This document shows positions 51,800 to 64,000 of a DNA stretch of 64,000 nucleotides, piece after piece (the stretch's first letter is position 1; each line of letters opens with the position of its first letter). Source of the DNA: Candidatus Methylomirabilota bacterium. Lineage in GTDB: Bacteria; Methylomirabilota; Methylomirabilia; Rokubacteriales; CSP1-6. The notes under the pieces were generated by a model. It had not been told where the DNA came from, did not search any database, and worked only from the letters and a program-made list of their open reading frames with translations. The DNA lies in NCBI GenBank assembly GCA_046726415.1, contig JBKPAK010000103.1, forward strand, positions 1-64,000. Reading direction: 5' to 3'. The translations under genes were made by a program, and so were the position numbers.

Positions 51800-52459
51800 T
51801 CACAAGTGCAGTGGGTTGAAGTCGGTGTCCCGGTCGTAGGCATCCATCCGCTCGCGGTCTTTCAGCCAGCCGACGACAAGGTACGTCAGTGGGGTGGCCG
51901 CGGCCTCGTAGGCGACCTTGGTCACCCACTGCGCCACGATGATGGTGACCAGCATGGCGAGCGGCACCAGGCCGGCGAAGGCGAACGCAACGAAGACGAC
52001 ACTATCCAGTCCTTGCCCGACGATGGTCGAGCCCACCGTTCGCGTCCAGAGCCATCGCCCCTGGGTGGCGATCTTCATGCGGGCCAGCGTGAAGCTGTTG
52101 GCGAACTCTCCGATGAGGTAGGCGAGGAAGGACGCCGCCAGGATCCTCGGGGTCTGCGCGAAAATCTCGGCATAGGCCGCCTGCCCCTTCCACACCGGGG
52201 CCGGAGGCAGCTCTCCGGCCAGCCAGATGGCGGCCACCATCAGGACATTGCAGGCGAAGCCGAGCCAGATGACCCGGCGGGCCGCGGCGTAGCCGTACAC
52301 TTCGGTGAGAACGTCCCCCACGATGTACGAGAGGGGGAAGATCACGACGCCGGCCGGCAACACCAGGCCGCCGACGATCACGAGCTTGGTGGCGATGACA
52401 TTGGCCGTGAGGAGACAGGTGACGAACAGCCCGGCGAAGACCAGGAATCGCCACGTCAT
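51800..52459 (-). CDS. Queuosine precursor transporter (YhhQ/VUT family)
   Basis: FPLSY...[23 protein letters not shown]; divergent from queC. Confidence 0.9.
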
Positions 52460-52575
52460 CACCAGCCCCTGCTCGGCCACATCGCCTCGATACTACACGA
52501 CGCATCGGCCCGCCACGACGAGTCGGCCCGGAGTTCTGGGGGCATGAGGCGCCGCGACACAGTGACGGTGGGGCG

Positions 52576-53277
52576 ATGAGCGTGGCCCGTCGCGCCGTCG
52601 TGCTGCTCAGCGGTGGCATCGACTCCACCACGGCCCTGGCCGTCGCCCTGCGAGGGGGATTCGCCGTCCATGCCCTGACCTTCAACTATGGTCAGCGGCA
52701 CGCCGCGGAGATCGGGGCGGCCCGGCGCGTGGTGCGGTCGCTGGCCGCGGACCAGCACATCGTCGTCAGCTTCGATCTCCGCCTCTTCGGCGGCTCCGCG
52801 CTCACCGCCGCCGTCGACGTCCCGAAGGATCGGGCTCCGGCCGAGATGGCCGGCGACATCCCCATCACCTACGTTCCCGCACGCAACACGATCTTCCTCT
52901 CCTTCGCGCTGGCCTGGGCGGAGACTCTCGCGGCGAGCGACATCTTCATCGGCGTCAACGCCCTCGACTATTCGGGATATCCCGACTGTCGCCCGGAGTA
53001 CATCGAGGCCTTCCAGCGAATGGCCGATCTCGCGACCAGGGCCGGCGTCGAGGGGCGCCAGCGACTCCGCATTCACACGCCGCTCCTCCGCATGACCAAG
53101 GCCGAGATCATCCGGACAGGCCTGGCCCTCGGGGTGGATTACGGCTTGACGCTCTCCTGCTACGACCCCGCCCCCGACGGCGCCTGCGGGCGCTGCGATG
53201 CGTGCCACCTGCGACTCAAGGGCTTCGCCGAAGCGGGCCGGCGCGACCCGGCCACCTACCGCGCGTCAGGACGATGA
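52576..53277 (+). CDS. queC: 7-cyano-7-deazaguanine synthase
   Basis: SGGIDS, YGQRH, TYVPARN, YPDCR, SCY, CGRCDAC. Confidence 0.95.
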
Positions 53278-56271: not shown

Positions 56272-56432
56272 CCGTGGGTCTACCTTTTGGGTTTTCGCGA
56301 GTATAGCAGTCACGCCGCCGCCTCGGTAGCCATGGTCGAGTCATATGCTGTTGACTCGATCGGAAATGCGGATGATCATGTGAGGGAGCGTCTCATCGTT
56401 TCGATCGCGAGGAGAGGAGTGGAATCGCGCCG

Positions 56433-57659
56433 ATGAAGACCTTGAAAGAAATGATCGCCGAGGCCCGTGCAGTCGTTCCCGAGGAGGGGCCCGCGGATCT
56501 GCGGCGCCGTATCGAAGCTGGAGAGCCGGTCAGCATCGTCGACGTGCGTGACCCTGACGAATACCGGGATGGCCATATCGAGCCGGCCACCAACATCAGC
56601 CGGGGATTCCTGGAGTTTCGCATCGGAAGCGCTGTTCCCGATCCGTCGTCGACCGTCGTTCTCTATTGCCAGTCCGGCCTTCGCTCCGTCCTGGCGGCCA
56701 AAGCGCTTAAGGATCTTGGCTACGCGAACGTCATCAATCTCCAGGGCGGATACCAGAAGTGGGCGCAATCCGGATTCCCGGTGGTCAAGGACGTCGCGCT
56801 GACCACCGAGCAAATCCAGCGCTACAGCCGACATTTCCTCCTCTCCCAGGTGGGCGAGAAGGGGCAGCGCAAGCTGCTGCGCTCCAAGGTCCTGCTCATC
56901 GGCGCCGGCGGCCTGGGGTCGCCGACGGCCCTCTACCTGGCCGCGGCTGGCGTCGGCACTCTCGGGCTCATGGACGGCGACATCGTCGACATCACCAACC
57001 TGCAGCGGCAGATCCTGCACACGACGGCCGACGTCGGCAAGCCCAAGGTGGAATCGGGTACGCGAACGCTGAAGGCCCTGAACCCTGACGTCAACGTCAT
57101 CGCCCTCCCCACGCGCATCACCGTCGACAACGTCAACGACATCATTGCCGACTACGACCTCGTCGTGGACGGCTCCGACAACTTCGAGACTCGCTACCTC
57201 GTCAACGATGCATGTTACCTGGCCGGCAAGACCAACGTACACGGCTCGATCTTCCAGTTCGAGGGCATGGCGTCGGTGTTCGCCCCTAATCAGGGGCCGT
57301 GCTATCGCTGCCTCTATCCCTCTCCGCCGCCACCCGGCCTCGTACCCTCCTGAAGCGAGGCCGGTGTCCTGGGCGTGCTCCCAGGAGTGATCGGGCTGGT
57401 GCAGGCCACCGAAGCGGTGAAGCTTCTCCTCGGTATCGGCGACCCCCTCATCGGACGGCTCCTCACCTACGACGCCCTCGGCATGCGCTTCCGCGAGGTG
57501 CGTCTGAGGCGGGATCCGAAGTGCCCCCTGTGCGGGAATGCCCCCACCATCAAGGATCTGTCCATTCATCGGGAAGGGGCCGACGAAGCGTGCGCCGCGA
57601 CTGAGAACGGCGACGGCCAGGTCGCGCTCGCTGGTACCCCGGTCCGCGCCGGCGCCTGA
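56433..57659 (+). CDS. moeB: Rhodanese-MoeB (molybdopterin-synthase adenylyltransferase) fusion, probable selenoprotein (TGA at 57351-57353)
   Basis: Rhodanese YCQSGLRS; RYSRH, GAGGLG, NLQRQ, CYRC, PS*SEAGVLG, RDPKCPLC all in one frame across the TGA. Confidence 0.85.
57361..57394 (+). promoter_or_regulatory. Putative bacterial SECIS hairpin
   Basis: TCCTGGG-cgtgct-CCCAGGA stem (57367-86) extended by CCGGT/ATCGG; apical loop ~20 nt 3' of the UGA. Confidence 0.6.
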
Positions 57660-57729
57660 TCGTCCGTCCAGGCGCCTCCGCGGACCGGCCGGTGCGTCGG
57701 CCCCCACCGACAGGTATGCGACATCCGAG

Positions 57730-58230
57730 ATGAGTCGGCGCAGCGGGACCGAGTTGACCCCCGCGCTCGTCCAGCGCTTCTCGCAACGCGAACTTCGCAA
57801 CCGGCTTGGCGCCGTGCTGCCCTTCGTCACCATCGATGGGCAGGGGCGGGCGCATCCGATGCTGCTCTCCTACCTCGAGATCCGGGCGTACGATTCGCGG
57901 ACGCTGGGGCTGGTGATTCAGGCCCGCAGCGGGAGTGCACAGAACCTCGTCGAGCGGGGCGTGGGAACACTACTCGTCGTGGAGCCCGACGCCATTGTGT
58001 ACGTGAAGACTCGGGCCATCGATGGGCCGCTGCCCGTTCCAGGCGGGGAGGAGGCGGGGCTGGGCTACTTCCTCCTCGAGGTCGAGGAGATCCTGGAGGA
58101 CGTCGCGGCGGACTGGGAGACAGCAATGCGCATTACGGCCCCTGCTCAGTATCGGCCCGTACCCACGCTCGACGAGCCGTGGGCGCGCGCGACGCTCGAC
58201 TCCCTCGCCTCACCCCGCGCGCGGGCCTGA
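57730..58230 (+). CDS. Pyridoxamine 5'-phosphate oxidase-like (FMN-binding split barrel) protein
   Basis: TID..G.AH..LLS..E, S.S..NL...G..TL. Confidence 0.65.
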   Translation: MSRRSGTELTPALVQRFSQRELRNRLGAVLPFVTIDGQGRAHPMLLSYLEIRAYDSRTLGLVIQARSGSAQNLVERGVGTLLVVEPDAIVYVKTRAIDGPLPVPGGEEAGLGYFLLEVEEILEDVAADWETAMRITAPAQYRPVPTLDEPWARATLDSLASPRARA

Positions 58231-59372: not shown

Positions 59373-59897
59373 TCACCGGCTCACTTCGCGCACGAGGTGT
59401 GGCAGCTCCGGAATGAGCAGCTTCTCGAGCGCCAGCCGGCACGCATTTGGCGATCCGGGCAGAGACACGAGGATGCGCCCGGCGTGGATGCCCATCTGGG
59501 CGCGCGAGAGCATGGCGGCGGCGCCCACCTCCTGGTAGGAGAGGATCCGGAACAGCTCGCCGAAGCCGGGGAGTCGCTTCTCGAGCAGAGCCTCCACCGC
59601 CTCGAACGTCGAGTCACGCGAGGTGATTCCGGTTCCCCCGGTGAGCACCACCGCGCGCACGGCCGGGTCGGCGCAGGCTTCCCGGACGATGCGCTGGACC
59701 TCGACGGGCTCGTCGCGCACGATGGCCGAGCCGAACACCGGGTGGCCGGCCGAGACCAGCAGCTCGCGGATCAAGGCGCCGCTGGTATCGGTTTCCGGCG
59801 TCTTCGTGTCGGAAATCGTCAGGACGAAGCAGCCCACGGTCTCGGGGGCGCTGGCCTTGTGCGCGCGAGGAGTCGCGGCGGGATCGGAGGCGCTCAT
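59373..59897 (-). CDS. MogA/MoaB family molybdenum cofactor biosynthesis protein
   Basis: TISD, D.SG, TGGTGIT.RD.T.EA, PGFGE, AMLSRA, LPGSP. Confidence 0.92.
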   Translation of the reverse strand: MSASDPAATPRAHKASAPETVGCFVLTISDTKTPETDTSGALIRELLVSAGHPVFGSAIVRDEPVEVQRIVREACADPAVRAVVLTGGTGITSRDSTFEAVEALLEKRLPGFGELFRILSYQEVGAAAMLSRAQMGIHAGRILVSLPGSPNACRLALEKLLIPELPHLVREVSR

Positions 59898-61213
59898 CCA
59901 GCGCCGTAGGCCCGATCGAGGAGCTCGACCAGGTGGAGCACGCGCACCCCTGATCCGCGCTCGCGCAACCCCTTCTCGATCTGCAGGATGCACCCCGGAT
60001 TGGCCGTCACCACCGCCTCAGCGGCGGTAGCCAGGATGTGGTCGATCTTGCGCCGCAGGAGGCGAGCGGCCATCTCGAGTTCGGTGAGGTTGTAGATGCC
60101 GGCCGAGCCACAGCACCAGTCGGACTCCGCGAGGGATACGACCTTCAGTGAGGGCACCTGGGCGAGCAACTGGCGCGGCTGATTCCGGATCTTCTGGCCG
60201 TGCACCACATGGCAAGGGTCGTGATACGCGACGGTCATCGGGACCGCCTGGAGCGGTCCCCGCAGCGGCTCACGGGCCAGGAATTCGGAGATGTCCTGGA
60301 CGCCGGCCGCGAAGCGACGGGCGCGCGGTGCCCAGGTCGGGTCGCCCTCCAGCAAGGTGCCGTAGGCCTTCATGTGGGCGCCGCAGCCCGATGTGTTGAC
60401 GACCACGGCGTCGACGCGTTCCCTCTCGAACGCCTCGATGGTTCGCCGGGCCATGATCAGTGCGCCTGCGTGCTCCCCGCCATGGGCGTTGAGGGCCCCA
60501 CAACATCCCTGTCTCGACGGAACGACGACATCCACTCCGTTCCGCGCGAGGACCCGGGCCGTGGCCCGGTTGTGGGCACCGAACACCACGGACTGAACAC
60601 AGCCGGTGAGGAGCGCCACGCGTGCCCGGCGCGGTCCCTTCGCGGCGATCAGCCGCGGAAGCGCCCTTCGCTCGCGCGCGCCAGGAATGCGGGGCATGAG
60701 CGCTTCCCAGGCGGGAAGCGCTCCCGGCAGCATGCGCACCAGACCGGTGGCGTTCGCCAGAGCTTGCGCGCCCGACACTTGATAGAAACGAAGCGCGGCG
60801 GCGGCCGTCCTCAGCATCGCCGGCCGACCCAGCAGAACGCCGAAGTTGAGCGACCGGAACAGCCGGCGAATGATTCCGCCGGGACGCCGATGCTCGATCT
60901 CCGCCTTGGCGGCTTCGATGAGGCGCCCGTAGGGCACGCCAGCTGGGCAGACTGTCTCACAGGCGCGGCAGTCGAGGCACAGCGATAAGTGTCGCGCCGT
61001 CCCCGCGGACAGAGCAATGCGTCCCTCGGCCAGGGCCTTGATGAGGAAGATGCGCCCGCGGGGGGAGTCCATCTCCGTCCCGAGCTCAGCGAAGGTTGGA
61101 CAGTAGGCCAGGCAAAGCCCGCAATGAACACACTGGTTGACGCCTTCCACCGACATGCCCTGTAGGGCAAGCGGACCGGGTTGGCGTGGCGCTTCGGAAA
61201 CCATGTGCGCCAT
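59894..61213 (-). CDS. glcF: Glycolate oxidase Fe-S subunit
   Basis: CVHCGLC...CPT, SPRGRI, CLDCRAC...CP, two CCG motifs. Confidence 0.9.
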   Translation of the reverse strand: MAHMVSEAPRQPGPLALQGMSVEGVNQCVHCGLCLAYCPTFAELGTEMDSPRGRIFLIKALAEGRIALSAGTARHLSLCLDCRACETVCPAGVPYGRLIEAAKAEIEHRRPGGIIRRLFRSLNFGVLLGRPAMLRTAAAALRFYQVSGAQALANATGLVRMLPGALPAWEALMPRIPGARERRALPRLIAAKGPRRARVALLTGCVQSVVFGAHNRATARVLARNGVDVVVPSRQGCCGALNAHGGEHAGALIMARRTIEAFERERVDAVVVNTSGCGAHMKAYGTLLEGDPTWAPRARRFAAGVQDISEFLAREPLRGPLQAVPMTVAYHDPCHVVHGQKIRNQPRQLLAQVPSLKVVSLAESDWCCGSAGIYNLTELEMAARLLRRKIDHILATAAEAVVTANPGCILQIEKGLRERGSGVRVLHLVELLDRAYGAG

Positions 61214-61221
61214 GGCCGGCC

Positions 61222-62535
61222 CTAGATGCCGGCCACGAAGCGACCGGGGTTGAGGAGATTGGCCGGATCGAGCTGTGCCTTGATGCGCCGCATGAGACGC
61301 CCGGCGGCGCCCAGGTCTTCCCACACCGACACTTCCGACTTCACGGCGAGTGGTGCCCACTCCAAGGTGGCGTGGCCACCGCCGGAATGGGCGAGATCGC
61401 GCCACTCACCGAGCACCGAGGCCACTGATTTCAGATCCGGACGATCGCTTGTCGACCCGAGGGCGGCGGTCACCACGCCCACGCCCGCGTGCGAGGTCCA
61501 GGCCGTGCGGAATCCGCGCTGCTTGGCCACGCTCGCACCCTGCTCCATCAGCTCGGCCACGAGGGTCGGCAGGACATTGAAGCGCATGACGGCCGCGGCG
61601 GCACCCACCGAGGCGCGCGCCGGGAAGCCTCCCGGCGGAGGGCCACCGGCGAGGGGGACGATGCCATGCCCACCCAGCGGCCCGGTGACGGAGGCCAGCT
61701 CCCCGCATTGCCAGTCGACCTGCTCCGGTAAGCCGTCGAAGGCCACCACGAGCGTCGGGATCGCAACCGACGAGACGGCACGGCTCGCGTCGGCGTCCAG
61801 CAACTCCACAGCGCAGGGAATAAGGTCGGCACTCATCATGGCCCGGACGGCCGCGCTCGCATCCTTCAAGCGATCGAAGCGGACGCATACCCAGCGCTCC
61901 GCGTCGGGGACCGGCCGCAGCCTGACGGTCAGATCGACAATGACGCCGAGGGTCCCGTATGAACCGATGAAGAGCTTTGGCAGGTCGTAGCCCGCCACGT
62001 TCTTGACCACCTTGCCGCCGCCGCGCACGATCGCGGCATCGCCGGTGACCACGGTGAGACCGATGAGCTGATCACGGGCAGTGCCGTAGAGATGGCGGCG
62101 CGGACCCGAGGCATTCGCCGCGACGACACCGCCTATGGTGGCGCGATCGGCGTCGGCCGGATCGAGCGACAGCCATTGTCCCCGCACGCGCAGTGCCGCT
62201 TGAAAGCGCGCGAGGGTCATGCCGGCTTGGACGGTGGCCGTCAGATCGCCGGGCTCATGCTCGATGATCTGGTCCAGGCGACCCAAACCGAGCACGATGC
62301 CCATCCGGGCCGGAGGCGCGCCCACTGTGGCGGCTGTCCCTCCTCCCCACGGGATGAGGGTGCTGCCGCACTCTGCCGCGAGCGCCACCACGCTCCGCAC
62401 CTCGTCCACCGACCGCGGGAATACTGCCGCATCGGGCGTCCGCCCCTCGATCACATAGGGGCACAGCTCGATCCCGGTGAGGACGTTGGTGGAGCCGACC
62501 AGGGCGCGGAGCTTTTCGATGACCGCGGGCTGCAT
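61222..62535 (-). CDS. glcE: Glycolate oxidase FAD-binding subunit
   Basis: HEPGDLT, GGKVVKNVAGYDL.KLF.GS.GTLG, LDP...LNPGR. Confidence 0.88.
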   Translation of the reverse strand: MQPAVIEKLRALVGSTNVLTGIELCPYVIEGRTPDAAVFPRSVDEVRSVVALAAECGSTLIPWGGGTAATVGAPPARMGIVLGLGRLDQIIEHEPGDLTATVQAGMTLARFQAALRVRGQWLSLDPADADRATIGGVVAANASGPRRHLYGTARDQLIGLTVVTGDAAIVRGGGKVVKNVAGYDLPKLFIGSYGTLGVIVDLTVRLRPVPDAERWVCVRFDRLKDASAAVRAMMSADLIPCAVELLDADASRAVSSVAIPTLVVAFDGLPEQVDWQCGELASVTGPLGGHGIVPLAGGPPPGGFPARASVGAAAAVMRFNVLPTLVAELMEQGASVAKQRGFRTAWTSHAGVGVVTAALGSTSDRPDLKSVASVLGEWRDLAHSGGGHATLEWAPLAVKSEVSVWEDLGAAGRLMRRIKAQLDPANLLNPGRFVAGI

Positions 62536-62555
62536 GAGAGCCACCGCGCCCGCGC

Positions 62556-64000
62556 CTAGAAGCGCTGGGCGAGGCCCTTCTCCTCGATGGCGTGAGGCCG
62601 GTAGGCCACGGGGCCGACCTCGATACAGGATTTTCGGGTGGGAAAGACCTTCCCCGGATTGCAGAGCCCCCGGGGATTGAACGCGTTCTTCAGTCGCTGC
62701 ATCAGCTCGAGATCGGACGCCGAGAAGATGAACGGCATGAAATCGGCTTTCTCCAGACCGATGCCATGCTCCCCGGAGATCGACCCCCCCACCTCGGCGC
62801 ACACCCTCATGATCTCCGCGCCGGCCGCCACGACCCGCTGCTCCTCGCCGGGCCGGCGCGGGTCGTAGAGGATATTGGGGTGCAGGTTGCCGTCGCCCGC
62901 GTGGAAGACGTTCCCCACCCGCAGCGCGTGCTCGGCGATAATCTCGTTGACTCGCCGGAGCACGTACGGCAGTCTTGTGCGCGGGATGACGCCGTCCATC
63001 ACCATGTAGGCGGGGGAGAGGCGGCCATACGCCCCAAAAGCCGACTTGCGACCTTTCCAGAGAAGCTGGCGCTCGGCCTCATCCCGGGCCGTGCGGATCT
63101 CCCGGGCGCCGACGTCCCGGCACGCCTGTACGATCCGCTCCACTTGCGCAGCCATGCCCACGGAGAGGCCGTCCAGCTCGATCAGGAGCGCAGCCGCCGC
63201 GTCGCGCGGATAACCGCACTGGAACGCGTCCTCTACGGCCTGGATCGTGAGGTGATCGATCATTTCCATCGCCGCCGGTACCAGTCCACGCGCAATGACC
63301 GCGGAGACCGCCTCTGAGGCCCCGTTGACATCGTCGAAGATGGCCAGGACCGTCTTGACGGCCTGCGGCTTCTTGAGAATGCGAACCACGATGGCCGTGG
63401 CGATGCCGAAGGTGCCCTCGGAGCCGACGAAGACGCCGGCCAGATCGTACCCGGGCGCCTCGCGTGTCTTCCCCCCGAGCCAGACCACCTCGCCATCAGG
63501 CATGACGACTTCGAGGCCCAAGACGTGGTTGGTGGTCACGCCGTACTTGAGCGTATGAGGCCCGCCCGAGTTGTTGGCGATGTTGCCCCCAATCGTGCAG
63601 GCCTGCTGGCTCGAGGGATCGGGCGCGTAGTAGTACCCTCGCGAACCCACGGCCCACGACAAGTGCAGGTTGACGAGTCCAGGTTGGACGACCGCGATCT
63701 GGTTGTCGTAGTCGACCTCCAGCACGCGATTCATCCGCATCATCGAGATGACGATGCCCCCTTCCGCGGGCAAGCACCCACCGGATAGGCCGGTGCCCGC
63801 TCCTCGCGCCACGAAGGGAATCCCCTGCCGGTGAGCGAGCCGAACGACATCGGCCACCTGGGCCGTCTCGCGCGGAAATACGACGAAATCGGCCAGGGCG
63901 CGGAAGAGGGTGAGCCCATCCGATTCGTACGTCAGCAGCTCGTCTGGGTCGGCGAGAACGCCATCGCGGCCGAGGATCCCCTCCAACTCCGTCCGGAGAC
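62556..64000 (-). CDS. glcD: Glycolate oxidase subunit GlcD (start probably beyond the window edge)
   Basis: RGAGTGLSGG, YAPDPSSQ.ACTIGGN, HAGDGNLHP, GEHGIG.EK. Confidence 0.9.
   Translation of the reverse strand, partial: LRTELEGILGRDGVLADPDELLTYESDGLTLFRALADFVVFPRETAQVADVVRLAHRQGIPFVARGAGTGLSGGCLPAEGGIVISMMRMNRVLEVDYDNQIAVVQPGLVNLHLSWAVGSRGYYYAPDPSSQQACTIGGNIANNSGGPHTLKYGVTTNHVLGLEVVMPDGEVVWLGGKTREAPGYDLAGVFVGSEGTFGIATAIVVRILKKPQAVKTVLAIFDDVNGASEAVSAVIARGLVPAAMEMIDHLTIQAVEDAFQCGYPRDAAAALLIELDGLSVGMAAQVERIVQACRDVGAREIRTARDEAERQLLWKGRKSAFGAYGRLSPAYMVMDGVIPRTRLPYVLRRVNEIIAEHALRVGNVFHAGDGNLHPNILYDPRRPGEEQRVVAAGAEIMRVCAEVGGSISGEHGIGLEKADFMPFIFSASDLELMQRLKNAFNPRGLCNPGKVFPTRKSCIEVGPVAYRPHAIEEKGLAQRF

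Follow-up and report, generated by a model that had tools for sequence, protein, structure and literature searches.

A rhodanese-ThiF/MoeB sulfur-carrier-activating enzyme gene of Rokubacteriales with a predicted selenocysteine at the crossover-loop cysteine position

Sulfur-carrier-activating enzymes differ in the role of their crossover-loop cysteine: a thioester forms on it in Uba4, an acyldisulfide in ThiF, and neither intermediate is known from MoeB. Xi et al. reportedly described the acyldisulfide of ThiF with ThiS in 2001, and C184 is the ThiF residue that we take to form it. According to the passage on E. coli MoeB in PMC7911844, its thioester with MoaD was never identified. In yeast Uba4, as described in PMC6007339, C225 forms a thioester and the rhodanese-domain C397 an acyl-persulfide, and both residues are needed in vitro and in vivo. 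A selenocysteine (Sec) version of such enzymes has also been catalogued. The selenoprotein family "Molybdopterin biosynthesis MoeB protein" was reported by Zhang, Fomenko & Gladyshev in 2005 from the Sargasso Sea (PMC1088965). It appeared again in the GOS data of 2008 with 19 Sec vs. 2262 Cys sequences (PMC2398784) and is listed in two reviews (PMC9312934, PMC13188914). The catalogues define the family by PF00899/COG0476 only, and domain order is not a stated defining feature. For Methylomirabilota, PMC13188914 mentions, after Deng et al., a MAG with 63 predicted selenoprotein genes; among the papers found on selenoproteins of this group, only this 2026 review has a relevant passage. The papers found on selenocysteine in Rokubacteria do not deal with Sec-MoeB, judged by titles and abstract openings.

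The gene considered here lies near the end of the window, by which we mean the whole analysed stretch of 64,000 nucleotides from a soil Rokubacteriales genome. Its features are collected in Table 1. Read from the sequence, the gene is a single 408-codon frame on the forward strand, and its sole interruption is a TGA at 57351-57353 that is in frame with both the ATG at 56433 and the TGA at the end of the gene. ORF calling with table 11 gives two pieces, 56433-57353 and 57375-57659. Reading through gives a product of 408 residues that contains ...GLVPS-U-SEAGVLG. A sequence-only reading of this DNA had pointed out that the two pieces belong to one frame and had proposed a protein of 408 residues with a rhodanese domain at its N-terminus. 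This observation is confirmed: only the one TGA intervenes, and PF00581 is found at residues 20-112. The apparent stop is almost certainly a selenocysteine codon at the position of the catalytic-loop cysteine.

Table 1. Features of the rhodanese-ThiF/MoeB gene, in window coordinates
Feature	Position	Strand	Basis
Rhodanese-ThiF/MoeB sulfur-carrier-activating enzyme gene, predicted Sec at residue 307	56433..57659	+	Frame and NF006444
Shine-Dalgarno-like purine-rich run GAGGAGAGGAG, 13 nt 5' of the ATG	56409..56419	+	Candidate, read from sequence
N-terminal rhodanese domain, residues 20-112	56490..56768	+	Pfam PF00581, 76.2 bits, E 3e-21
Cys79 codon (TGC), within the active-site loop C-Q-S-G-L-R-S of the rhodanese domain	56667..56669	+	Invariant in 113/113
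ThiF/MoeB adenylation domain, residues 131-365	56823..57527	+	Pfam PF00899, 285 bits
First CxxC (C290, C293), presumed zinc site	57300..57311	+	Invariant in 113/113; aligned to CYRC of ThiF/MoeB
In-frame TGA, predicted Sec307, crossover loop	57351..57353	+	Column counts and alignments
SECIS-like hairpin, stem 57367-57373 / 57380-57386, loop 57374-57379 (CGUGCU)	57367..57386	+	Folding and conservation
Second CxxC (C364, C367)	57522..57533	+	Cys in 112/113, one gap; aligned to the C-terminal CxxC of ThiF/MoeB
TGC, Cys387 in the C-terminal tail past the ThiF domain	57591..57593	+	Cys in 105/113 rows
True stop codon TGA	57657..57659	+	Frame

The predicted fold is obvious from the sequence. The NCBIfam equivalog model NF006444 (PRK08762, MoeB) matches residues 4-374 (profile positions 3-374 of 387) with 536.8 bits vs. 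a cut-off of 449. The NCBIfam MoeZ model NF005902 gives 398.4 bits, which is below its cut-off of 647 bits. In the rhodanese domain, C79, G82, and R84 are unvaried in all 113 aligned relatives (113/113), and Cys79 would be the persulfide carrier, by likeness to Cys397 in the rhodanese domain of Uba4. Residues 123-370, which take in the adenylation domain, align with E. coli ThiF (1zud/1zfn, E 5.5e-59) and MoeB (1jw9, E 9.5e-56). Both CxxC motifs are shared with these proteins, and published descriptions of Uba4 point to zinc binding at the CxxC site. E. coli ThiF and MoeB differ in being without a rhodanese domain and in having Cys instead of Sec. Counted in these alignments, residue 307 falls in the column of ThiF C184 and MoeB C187; the crossover-loop cysteine of Uba4 (K in 6yuc and 6z6s) aligns with it as well. 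The earlier placing of the TGA at the ThiF cysteine is borne out. In the tail, Cys387 might serve as a resolving or relay cysteine, which is a speculation.

Orthologues with cysteine at this column are found in Rokubacteria/Methylomirabilota MAGs, where they are annotated as "molybdopterin-synthase adenylyltransferase MoeB". They share the architecture and length (381-446 aa), are 74-83% identical to the protein studied here, and keep the motif, with C in place of U. They differ in that TGC replaces TGA and in that the codons of the downstream hairpin are not invariant. On a FastTree tree of 113 rows, the Cys forms are nested within the Sec forms, with at least two state changes, and 6/7 of them are in one clade (support 99). 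The near-identity of these orthologues (77-83%) suggests that the same chemistry is carried out with S or Se.

Taken together, the comparisons make it highly probable that the locus encodes one rhodanese-ThiF/MoeB selenoprotein E1 of 408 residues, with the UGA decoded by tRNA-Sec and SelB under the direction of the hairpin. The earlier reading of the gene as a selenoenzyme is supported. We know of no member of the Sec-MoeB family in which selenium incorporation at the UGA has been demonstrated. In the proposed mechanism, the ThiF domain would adenylate the C-terminal Gly-Gly of ThiS/MoaD-type carriers, and a persulfide would form on the rhodanese Cys79. Sec307, at the site of the thioester cysteine of Uba4, would then bind the activated carrier in a selenoester and pass it on to the persulfide. 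Alternatively, Sec307 would resolve the acyl-persulfide, and the carrier thiocarboxylate would be released. Selenium could make either step faster and allow the enzyme to be re-reduced more easily. The role of residue 307 in this scheme is drawn by analogy from Uba4 and ThiF, since MoeB offers no known precedent. The enzyme may work like MoeZ, Uba4, and MOCS3, though it is not classed as one of them.

The genome offers several possible substrates. It has seven ThiS/MoaD-type carrier genes. MoaD occurs with MoaE as a fusion, ThiS with ThiG and ThiE, and another carrier adjoins cysteine synthase. In this draft (98% complete, 352 contigs), the gene described here is the only one with PF00899 above cut-off. 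The enzyme probably serves several carriers (those for Moco and thiamin and the one adjacent to cysteine synthase), since a search of the genome turned up no second ThiF-family gene. A PP-loop ATPase beside MoaD-MoaE was considered as a TtuA-type tRNA thiolase and rejected; NCBIfam names it TilS (165 bits), and therefore no claim about tRNA thiolation is made. The sequence-only reading had also placed a mogA/moaB gene close by. The neighbour exists, as a MoCF_biosynth (MogA/MoaB-type) ORF at 59373-59993 on the reverse strand, but it sits 1.7 kb downstream in convergent orientation, beyond an HtrA-like protease gene, and is not an operon partner.

It is conceivable that Sec307 is real and that its main job is other than carrier thiocarboxylation, namely as a redox or regulatory switch in the crossover loop or in selenium traffic. 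In the selenium-traffic version, a Gly-Gly carrier would, for example, be loaded for a selenium pathway. What speaks for such a job is a 78-residue ThiS-family ORF with a Gly-Gly end that sits immediately 5' of tRNA-Sec in the same orientation; a carrier ORF has this position in 17/30 tRNA-Sec loci of the order. However, adjacency of genes counts for little by itself. No second ThiF-type E1 was found, and both MoaD-MoaE and ThiS-ThiG-ThiE require one; the Cys-form orthologues are otherwise near-identical. We regard this alternative as unlikely. A wider proposal, in which the selenoenzyme alone acts as E1 on every ThiS/MoaD-type carrier of Rokubacteriales and is, together with its carrier, tied into selenium metabolism, is on present evidence quite improbable. 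If its single-E1 part were true, Moco, thiamin, and cysteine made by the carrier-dependent route would all depend on the selenium supply. If the tie to selenium metabolism were true, it could take the form of, e.g., a carrier-borne sulfur/selenium relay that feeds or regulates the Sec pathway.

The selenoprotein reading is strengthened by the presence in the genome of the complete set of tRNA-Sec, selA, selB, and selD, for which the sequence-only reading had proposed to search. The tRNA-Sec scores 71 bits with RF01852, vs. a gathering score of 47, and is called by ARAGORN as tRNA-SeC with anticodon tca. It is adjoined by selA (TIGR00474, 591.9 bits) and selB (TIGR00475, 374.2 bits). The selD gene (TIGR00476, 335.6 bits) has one in-frame TGA of its own. 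All three protein matches are above their cut-offs.

The hairpin that follows the UGA had been described as a perfect 7-bp stem with its loop about 20 nt from the UGA, and it is present as claimed. It starts 13 nt 3' of the UGA, and its 6-nt loop starts 20 nt after it (57354-57373 lie between). Folded alone, 57367-57386 gives -11.1 kcal/mol. The conserved core of the stem is 6 bp (57368-57373 / 57380-57385), and the seventh upper-stem pair, 57367-57386, is formed in only 50/90 sequences. The bacterial SECIS consensus model in the legend to Fig. 2 of PMC13188914 has a loop of 3-9 nt, an upper stem of 4-16 bp, a G at loop position 1 or 2 that is mostly followed by G/U, a distance of 16-37 nt from the UGA to the apical loop, and a minimum free energy of at most -7.5 kcal/mol. 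The hairpin agrees with this legend in each respect, with a 6-nt loop, 7 bp (6 conserved), a second-position G followed by U in CGUGCU, 20 nt, and the energy given above. A lower stem had also been proposed. It belongs to the minimum-energy fold, yet the 90 sequences do not conserve it: the pairs 9-46, 15-40, and 6-49 are broken in 63/90, 53/90, and 29/90, respectively; it was rejected as part of the element.

Folding energy was rejected as a discriminator, being no better than that of shuffles in DNA of 68% G+C. The 60 nt after the UGA give -25.3 kcal/mol (z = -0.57), and 49/200 shuffles fold equally well; sister-order and Cys-form stretches have folding z values from -0.57 to +1.42. For the full minimum-energy structure over 90 unique Sec-form 60-mers, 84.9% of cells are paired vs. 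84.5% in shuffled sets (16/500 as high). The covariation score on the same 60-mers is not above shuffled controls (136/500). These covariation measures fail to exceed shuffles because the stem hardly varies. Codon usage gives a different kind of evidence. The five consecutive codons of V312-L316 are 4- to 6-fold degenerate, and each is a single codon in 33/33 Sec-form sequences. They are the only five single-codon columns out of 107 degenerate columns with an invariant residue, and a run of at least five such columns occurred in 0/100000 shuffles. Across 85 unique Sec-form 60-mers of Rokubacteriales, the 20-nt core varies only by A/G at one wobble-compatible site, where U-A becomes U-G; this is the single variable site of the stem. 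Among eight unique Cys-form 60-mers, there are seven different cores. In the sister orders, the TGA is kept, and a re-registered hairpin occupies this position; in it a C-G pair is swapped to G-C, and the loop (GGUCCUG, 7 nt) starts with GG. A weak hairpin is also found in some Cys forms because high-G+C codons for VLGVLPG are by nature self-complementary. In the aligned sequences, the synonymous-site constraint on the hairpin codons is limited to TGA forms. This constraint and the agreement with the published model bear out the SECIS-like character that had been attributed to the hairpin.

Near-cognate tRNA read-through exists in bacteria, and the UGA might be read through without Sec, by near-cognate insertion of Trp or Cys or by lineage-wide reassignment of TGA. 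Such reassignment is at odds with the window, in which TGA is an ordinary stop: it ends 7/14 Pfam-supported ORFs checked in that part, the present gene included. Besides TGA, the column was found to have only TGC for Cys, which gives the classic Sec/Cys pair. With the full selA-selB-selD-tRNA-Sec set in the genome and a hairpin that fits the SECIS model and is constrained in TGA forms only, read-through without Sec is very improbable.

Related loci carry the argument further. Column 307 has TGA in 115/124 of them and TGC in 9/124, which is the Cys/TGA alternation expected of a selenoprotein, though such counts overstate the independent support because related genomes are kin. In the first-examined set, 33/34 loci have TGA at the column; a phylum scan gave an in-frame TGA in 143/150 among the matches listed, and sister-order orthologues of 57-65% identity keep it. 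Full-length database proteins with the Cys form number 48, of which some may be Sec records with U displayed as C (P0011 has the Sec-form neighbour S). The DNA-level count is therefore safer. Among the RNA runs looked up, none is listed with this gene. If the TGA were a real stop, the locus would be a pseudogene or would be split into a rhodanese/half-ThiF protein of 306 residues and a remnant of 94 residues. This is how databases treat it: table 11 yields two ORFs, and gene callers end 71/120 of the best matches at ...GLVPS, as the sequence-only reading had predicted of annotation pipelines. However, 115/124 loci, down to 57% identity, keep both the TGA and the frame behind it, and the residues after the TGA (EAGVLGVLPG) and the second CxxC are conserved as protein. 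A real stop would cut the ThiF domain at the crossover loop and leave it without the second zinc CxxC, and synonymous constraint just after the TGA is unexpected in a pseudogene. A real stop is hardly credible. An error for TGC/TGT, a general possibility in a metagenome-assembled genome, is negligible, given that 90 distinct 60-mers of independent assemblies share this TGA and that contigs from four soil runs of four studies (one of them, X1, possibly the source sample itself) span it with no other letter listed.

The assignment of the TGA corrects an annotation. The Sec-MoeB family itself has been known since 2005 and is already catalogued, whatever the significance of this gene. Metabolic reconstructions of Rokubacteria would wrongly score their only sulfur-carrier E1 as broken because gene calls cut it at the TGA. 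Should this enzyme be the only E1, an abundant soil lineage would depend on selenium in several of its cofactor pathways. The natural Sec/Cys pair, in enzymes that are otherwise 77-83% identical, is a ready-made probe of the crossover-loop step.

Among known systems, Uba4/MOCS3 (6yub, 6yuc) and MoeZ-type fusions have E1-like and rhodanese domains in one chain, as here. In Uba4, MOCS3, and MoeZ, however, the rhodanese domain is C-terminal of the E1, whereas here it is N-terminal. The carrier of Uba4 is Urm1, and its loop residue is Cys; here, bacterial ThiS/MoaD-type carriers and Sec would take their places. The statement in the sequence-only reading that Sec-containing MoeB homologues had been reported before was correct. 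The Sargasso Sea sequence AACY01471790 (supplement to PMC1088965) reads ...LVPS-u-AVAGVLGVLPG, compared with ...LVPS-U-SEAGVLGVLPG here, so Sec is in the same column, and its hairpin covers nearly the same codons. Its rhodanese domain is C-terminal (the MoeZ/MOCS3 order), while that of the present protein is N-terminal (the PRK08762 order). The gene thus shares with the published family the ThiF/MoeB domain and the same-column UGA paired with Cys, and departs from it in domain order. The Sargasso Sea form comes from ocean plankton, and the form described here from Rokubacteriales of soil and groundwater, where Sec is the usual state throughout an order rather than a sporadic one.

The two table 11 ORF calls (56433–57353 and 57375–57659) share one frame, as the sequence-only reading had claimed. 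This frame, the rhodanese-MoeB gene, is broken by a single internal TGA (residue 307, in ...GLVPS-U-SEAGVLGVLPG) and ends at a second TGA (57657–57659). Pfam supports the proposed order of an N-terminal rhodanese and a MoeB/ThiF domain. The NCBIfam equivalog NF006444 (PRK08762, 'molybdopterin-synthase adenylyltransferase MoeB') matches residues 4–374 at 536.8 bits against a cut-off of 449, so both the start and the read-through fit a full-length member. HMMER alignments with solved structures pair residue 307 with the cysteine of ...ERN-C-RTAGVVG in E. coli ThiF (position 184, counted in the 251-residue chain 1zud), which agrees with the earlier assignment. They also pair it with the cysteine of ...ALT-C-VEAGVM in E. 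coli MoeB (position 187 in 1jw9_B) and with that of ...TS-C-GEAG in Chaetomium Uba4 (6yub), where the trapping constructs 6yuc and 6z6s have lysine instead. By these alignments, residue 307 occupies the crossover-loop cysteine site of E1-like enzymes. Among 113 relatives there is next to no variation in either CxxC motif (C290/C293, C364/C367) or in the rhodanese loop C79-x-x-G-x-R, and Cys387 (57591–57593), in the C-terminal tail past the ThiF domain, is kept in 105 of them and may be a candidate relay or resolving cysteine. An antisense ORF of 485 residues (56376–57833, minus strand) covers the entire gene; long antisense ORFs are frequent in 68% G+C DNA.

Features of the rhodanese-MoeB gene (window coordinates) and of other loci (G, genome, G000 being that of the window; C, contig; L, fetched locus)
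Feature	Location	Strand	Remarks
Rhodanese-MoeB gene	56433–57659	+	one frame, 408 codons; sole interruption TGA 57351–57353
Rhodanese domain	residues 20–112	+	Pfam
ThiF domain	residues 131–365	+	Pfam
Hairpin	stem 57367–57373 / 57380–57386	+	perfect 7 bp; loop CGUGCU
tRNA-Sec	G000:C313:32822-32915	-	same contig as selA, selB
selD	G000:C223:11994-12938 = L019	+	335.6 bits; one in-frame TGA
Second tRNA-Sec-like matches	G032:C34:7190-7283; G034:C10:644089-644182		family f4 genomes
ThiS-family ORF 1			MoaD-MoaE fusion
ThiS-family ORF 2			ThiS adjoining ThiG and ThiE
ThiS-family ORF 3			adjoins CysK-type cysteine synthase and Rrf2 regulator
ThiS-family ORF 4			beside MOFRL gene
ThiS-family ORF 5			beside Moco-dependent dehydrogenase
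ThiS-family ORF 6			weak match
ThiS-family ORF 7	G000:C313:32980-33147 = L078:1498-1734	-	78 residues, Gly-Gly end, Pfam ThiS 34.5 bits

The alternation of Cys and TGA proposed for homologues is seen at this column. TGA stands there in 33 of 34 loci (the window and 33 same-order orthologous loci) and TGC in one. A larger set of 125 loci comprised these 34, six stop-free matches, five genomes of sister orders and 80 named contigs; one locus, with a contig end within 63 nt of the codon, was left out. TGA was read in 115 of the remaining 124 loci and TGC in nine, many loci of both fetches coming from the same genomes; distinct 60-mers after the codon number 90 and eight, respectively. Across the phylum, 251 genomes were scanned, the unpublished G115, G235 and G084 among them, and 169 gave a match at E <= 1e-120. 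Among the 150 of these matches listed, 143 have at least one in-frame TGA (at any position, the position being read in fetched loci only), six have none and one has TAG alone, with Cys at the residue-307 column. Three families of the phylum gave no match at this threshold (0/21, 0/15 and 0/20 genomes). The relatives carrying the gene are MAGs of Candidatus Rokubacteria, Rokuibacteriota or Methylomirabilota. Among the best 120 protein-database matches, 48 are complete and carry C at the column, and 71 stop exactly at ...GLVPS and have therefore been cut short by gene callers, just as mis-calling by pipelines had been predicted.

The TGA also holds in metagenome contigs. Contigs (Logan), rather than raw reads, from four soil-metagenome runs of four studies were placed on the gene at >=90% likeness; the best-matching run may be the source sample. 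All four runs cover 57335–57375, and several pieces span the codon. No other letter is listed for the contigs of the four runs at 57351–57353 or within 57363–57385; the listed differences are at 57344 and 57362. Of 14 Pfam-supported ORFs in this region of the window, 7 stop at TGA, and the 13 other than the rhodanese-MoeB gene have no internal in-frame TGA; TGA reassignment is absent in this genome.

A search of the genome (7.6 Mb, 352 contigs, 98% complete) recovered all four components of the Sec-decoding machinery that had been named for checking. The tRNA-Sec scores 71 bits against a gathering score of 47, is called tRNA-SeC with anticodon tca by ARAGORN, and is adjoined by selA (591.9 bits) and selB (374.2 bits). 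Because one TGA interrupts the selD frame, its product is probably a Sec-containing SelD. Several genomes of family f4 of the phylum carry a second, weaker tRNA-Sec-like match (49.7–52.5 bits, above the 47-bit gathering score), which in two of them shares a contig with the Sec-moeB gene, about 16 kb apart.

The claim of a SECIS-like hairpin was upheld for the perfect 7-bp stem, with a loop beginning 20 nt past the UGA, but not for the predicted lower stem, for which no conservation was found among Sec-form 60-mers (Sec forms being orthologues with TGA, and Cys forms those with TGC, at the column of residue 307). Folded on its own, the hairpin gave -11.1 kcal/mol, and it falls within the bacterial SECIS model outlined in PMC13188914 on all four criteria (loop of 3–9 nt on a stem of 4–16 bp; G in one of the first two loop positions; spacing of 16–37 nt; MFE <= -7.5). 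The VLGVLPG peptide in G+C-rich codons is inherently self-complementary, which counts against the SECIS reading. Folding energy (z = -0.57; equally stable in 49 of 200 shuffles) says nothing for or against the hairpin here; conservation does. When the codons of the 33 Sec forms are aligned, 107 columns hold an invariant, at least fourfold degenerate residue, with a mean codon entropy of 1.09 bits. Only five of these show a single codon throughout. They follow one another directly (V312 to L316) and encode the 5' arm and loop of the hairpin plus the first part of its 3' arm; 100000 shuffles produced no run as long or longer. The 20-nt core is invariant in 85 distinct Rokubacteriales Sec-form 60-mers save for one A/G site (U-A to U-G pair), whereas the Cys forms have seven different cores in eight distinct stretches, with changes that disrupt the stem. 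Conservation of the hairpin is thus evident among the Sec forms. Five sister-order Sec forms (57–65% protein identity) place it at the same distance from the UGA, with the 3' arm moved one base, the second pair changed from C-G to G-C and a 7-nt loop beginning GG. Two further points, besides the lower stem, speak against the SECIS reading: the seventh stem pair is present in only 50 of 90 sequences, and formal covariation measures showed no excess over shuffles among Sec-form 60-mers, because almost no site varies.

The history of the two forms was followed with FastTree on 113 distinct rows (106 Sec, 7 Cys; rows < 330 residues and duplicates left out), with the Sec/Cys column masked and five sister-order rows as root. 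At least two changes of state are required. One clade (support 99) unites six Cys forms and sits among the Sec forms of family f1, with support of only 81–92 at the enclosing nodes; the seventh Cys form is placed apart. Since the deep branches all carry Sec, parsimony favours replacement of Sec by Cys. In three MAGs (G140, G195, G137; contamination 2–9%), a Sec-form and a Cys-form copy lie on separate contigs, as could result from a paralogue, from transfer or from a mixed bin.

The only PF00899 match above cut-off in the genome is the rhodanese-MoeB gene, and the two other genomes of the genus have a single match each at E <= 1e-60. This single gene beside seven ThiS-family ORFs above cut-off points to a product that is probably a multi-carrier E1. 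The 78-residue ThiS-family ORF, which also matches Ub-Mut7C and TGS and is under NCBIfam cut-offs, precedes tRNA-Sec by about 64 nt and shares its strand; selA and selB come next. Of 30 tRNA-Sec loci from families f1, f2 and f4, four of them weaker second tRNA-Sec-like matches, 17 have a homologue of this ORF upstream in the same orientation. We infer the mechanism from yeast Uba4, in which crossover-loop C225 forms a thioester and rhodanese-domain C397 an acyl-persulfide, both being required (PMC6007339); by analogy, the crossover-loop residue and the rhodanese cysteine would act as a relay. For MoeB, a thioester with MoaD is described as never identified (PMC7911844).

The neighbours of the gene are divergent or convergent, which leaves it on its own, and no sulfur-carrier gene adjoins it. 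The mogA/moaB gene noticed nearby corresponds to a MogA/MoaB-type ORF downstream. Among 80 related loci, such an ORF occurs downstream in 26 and an HtrA-like protease in 43, both counts being limited by 3-kb flanks (both flanks full in 47 loci); a cupin-like ORF lies upstream on the opposite strand in 70. Elsewhere in the window (51800–53277), a minus-strand Vut_1 ORF (YhhQ-type queuosine-precursor transporter) neighbours a plus-strand QueC ORF. Three successive minus-strand ORFs (59894–63986) resemble a glycolate-oxidase-type GlcF/GlcE/GlcD cluster, with CCG and 4Fe-4S domains in one and FAD_binding_4 and FAD-oxidase_C in two.

That Sec-containing MoeB was already known, as the sequence-only reading held, is correct. 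'Molybdopterin biosynthesis MoeB protein' was a new selenoprotein family of 11 sequences in the Sargasso Sea study (PMC1088965). The GOS data again contained the family, with 19 Sec and 2262 Cys homologues (PMC2398784), and reviews of 2022 and 2026 give it under PF00899/COG0476 (PMC9312934, PMC13188914). In the Sargasso supplement, Sec stands at the identical column and is followed by nearly the same codons as in the window gene, whereas the rhodanese domain is C-terminal there and N-terminal here. The 21 nt over VLGVLPG in AACY01471790 and AACY01605093 differ from the Rokubacteriales core at two synonymous sites, one being a mismatch mid-stem as the stem is drawn for Rokubacteriales. These near-identical marine codons may have been inherited from a common ancestor of the Sec forms or have arisen by convergence towards one peptide. 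The family is therefore known; the distinctive points here are a rhodanese domain at the N-terminus, Sec near-fixed throughout an order of soil bacteria, and a rhodanese-MoeB that is the only E1 found in its genome.
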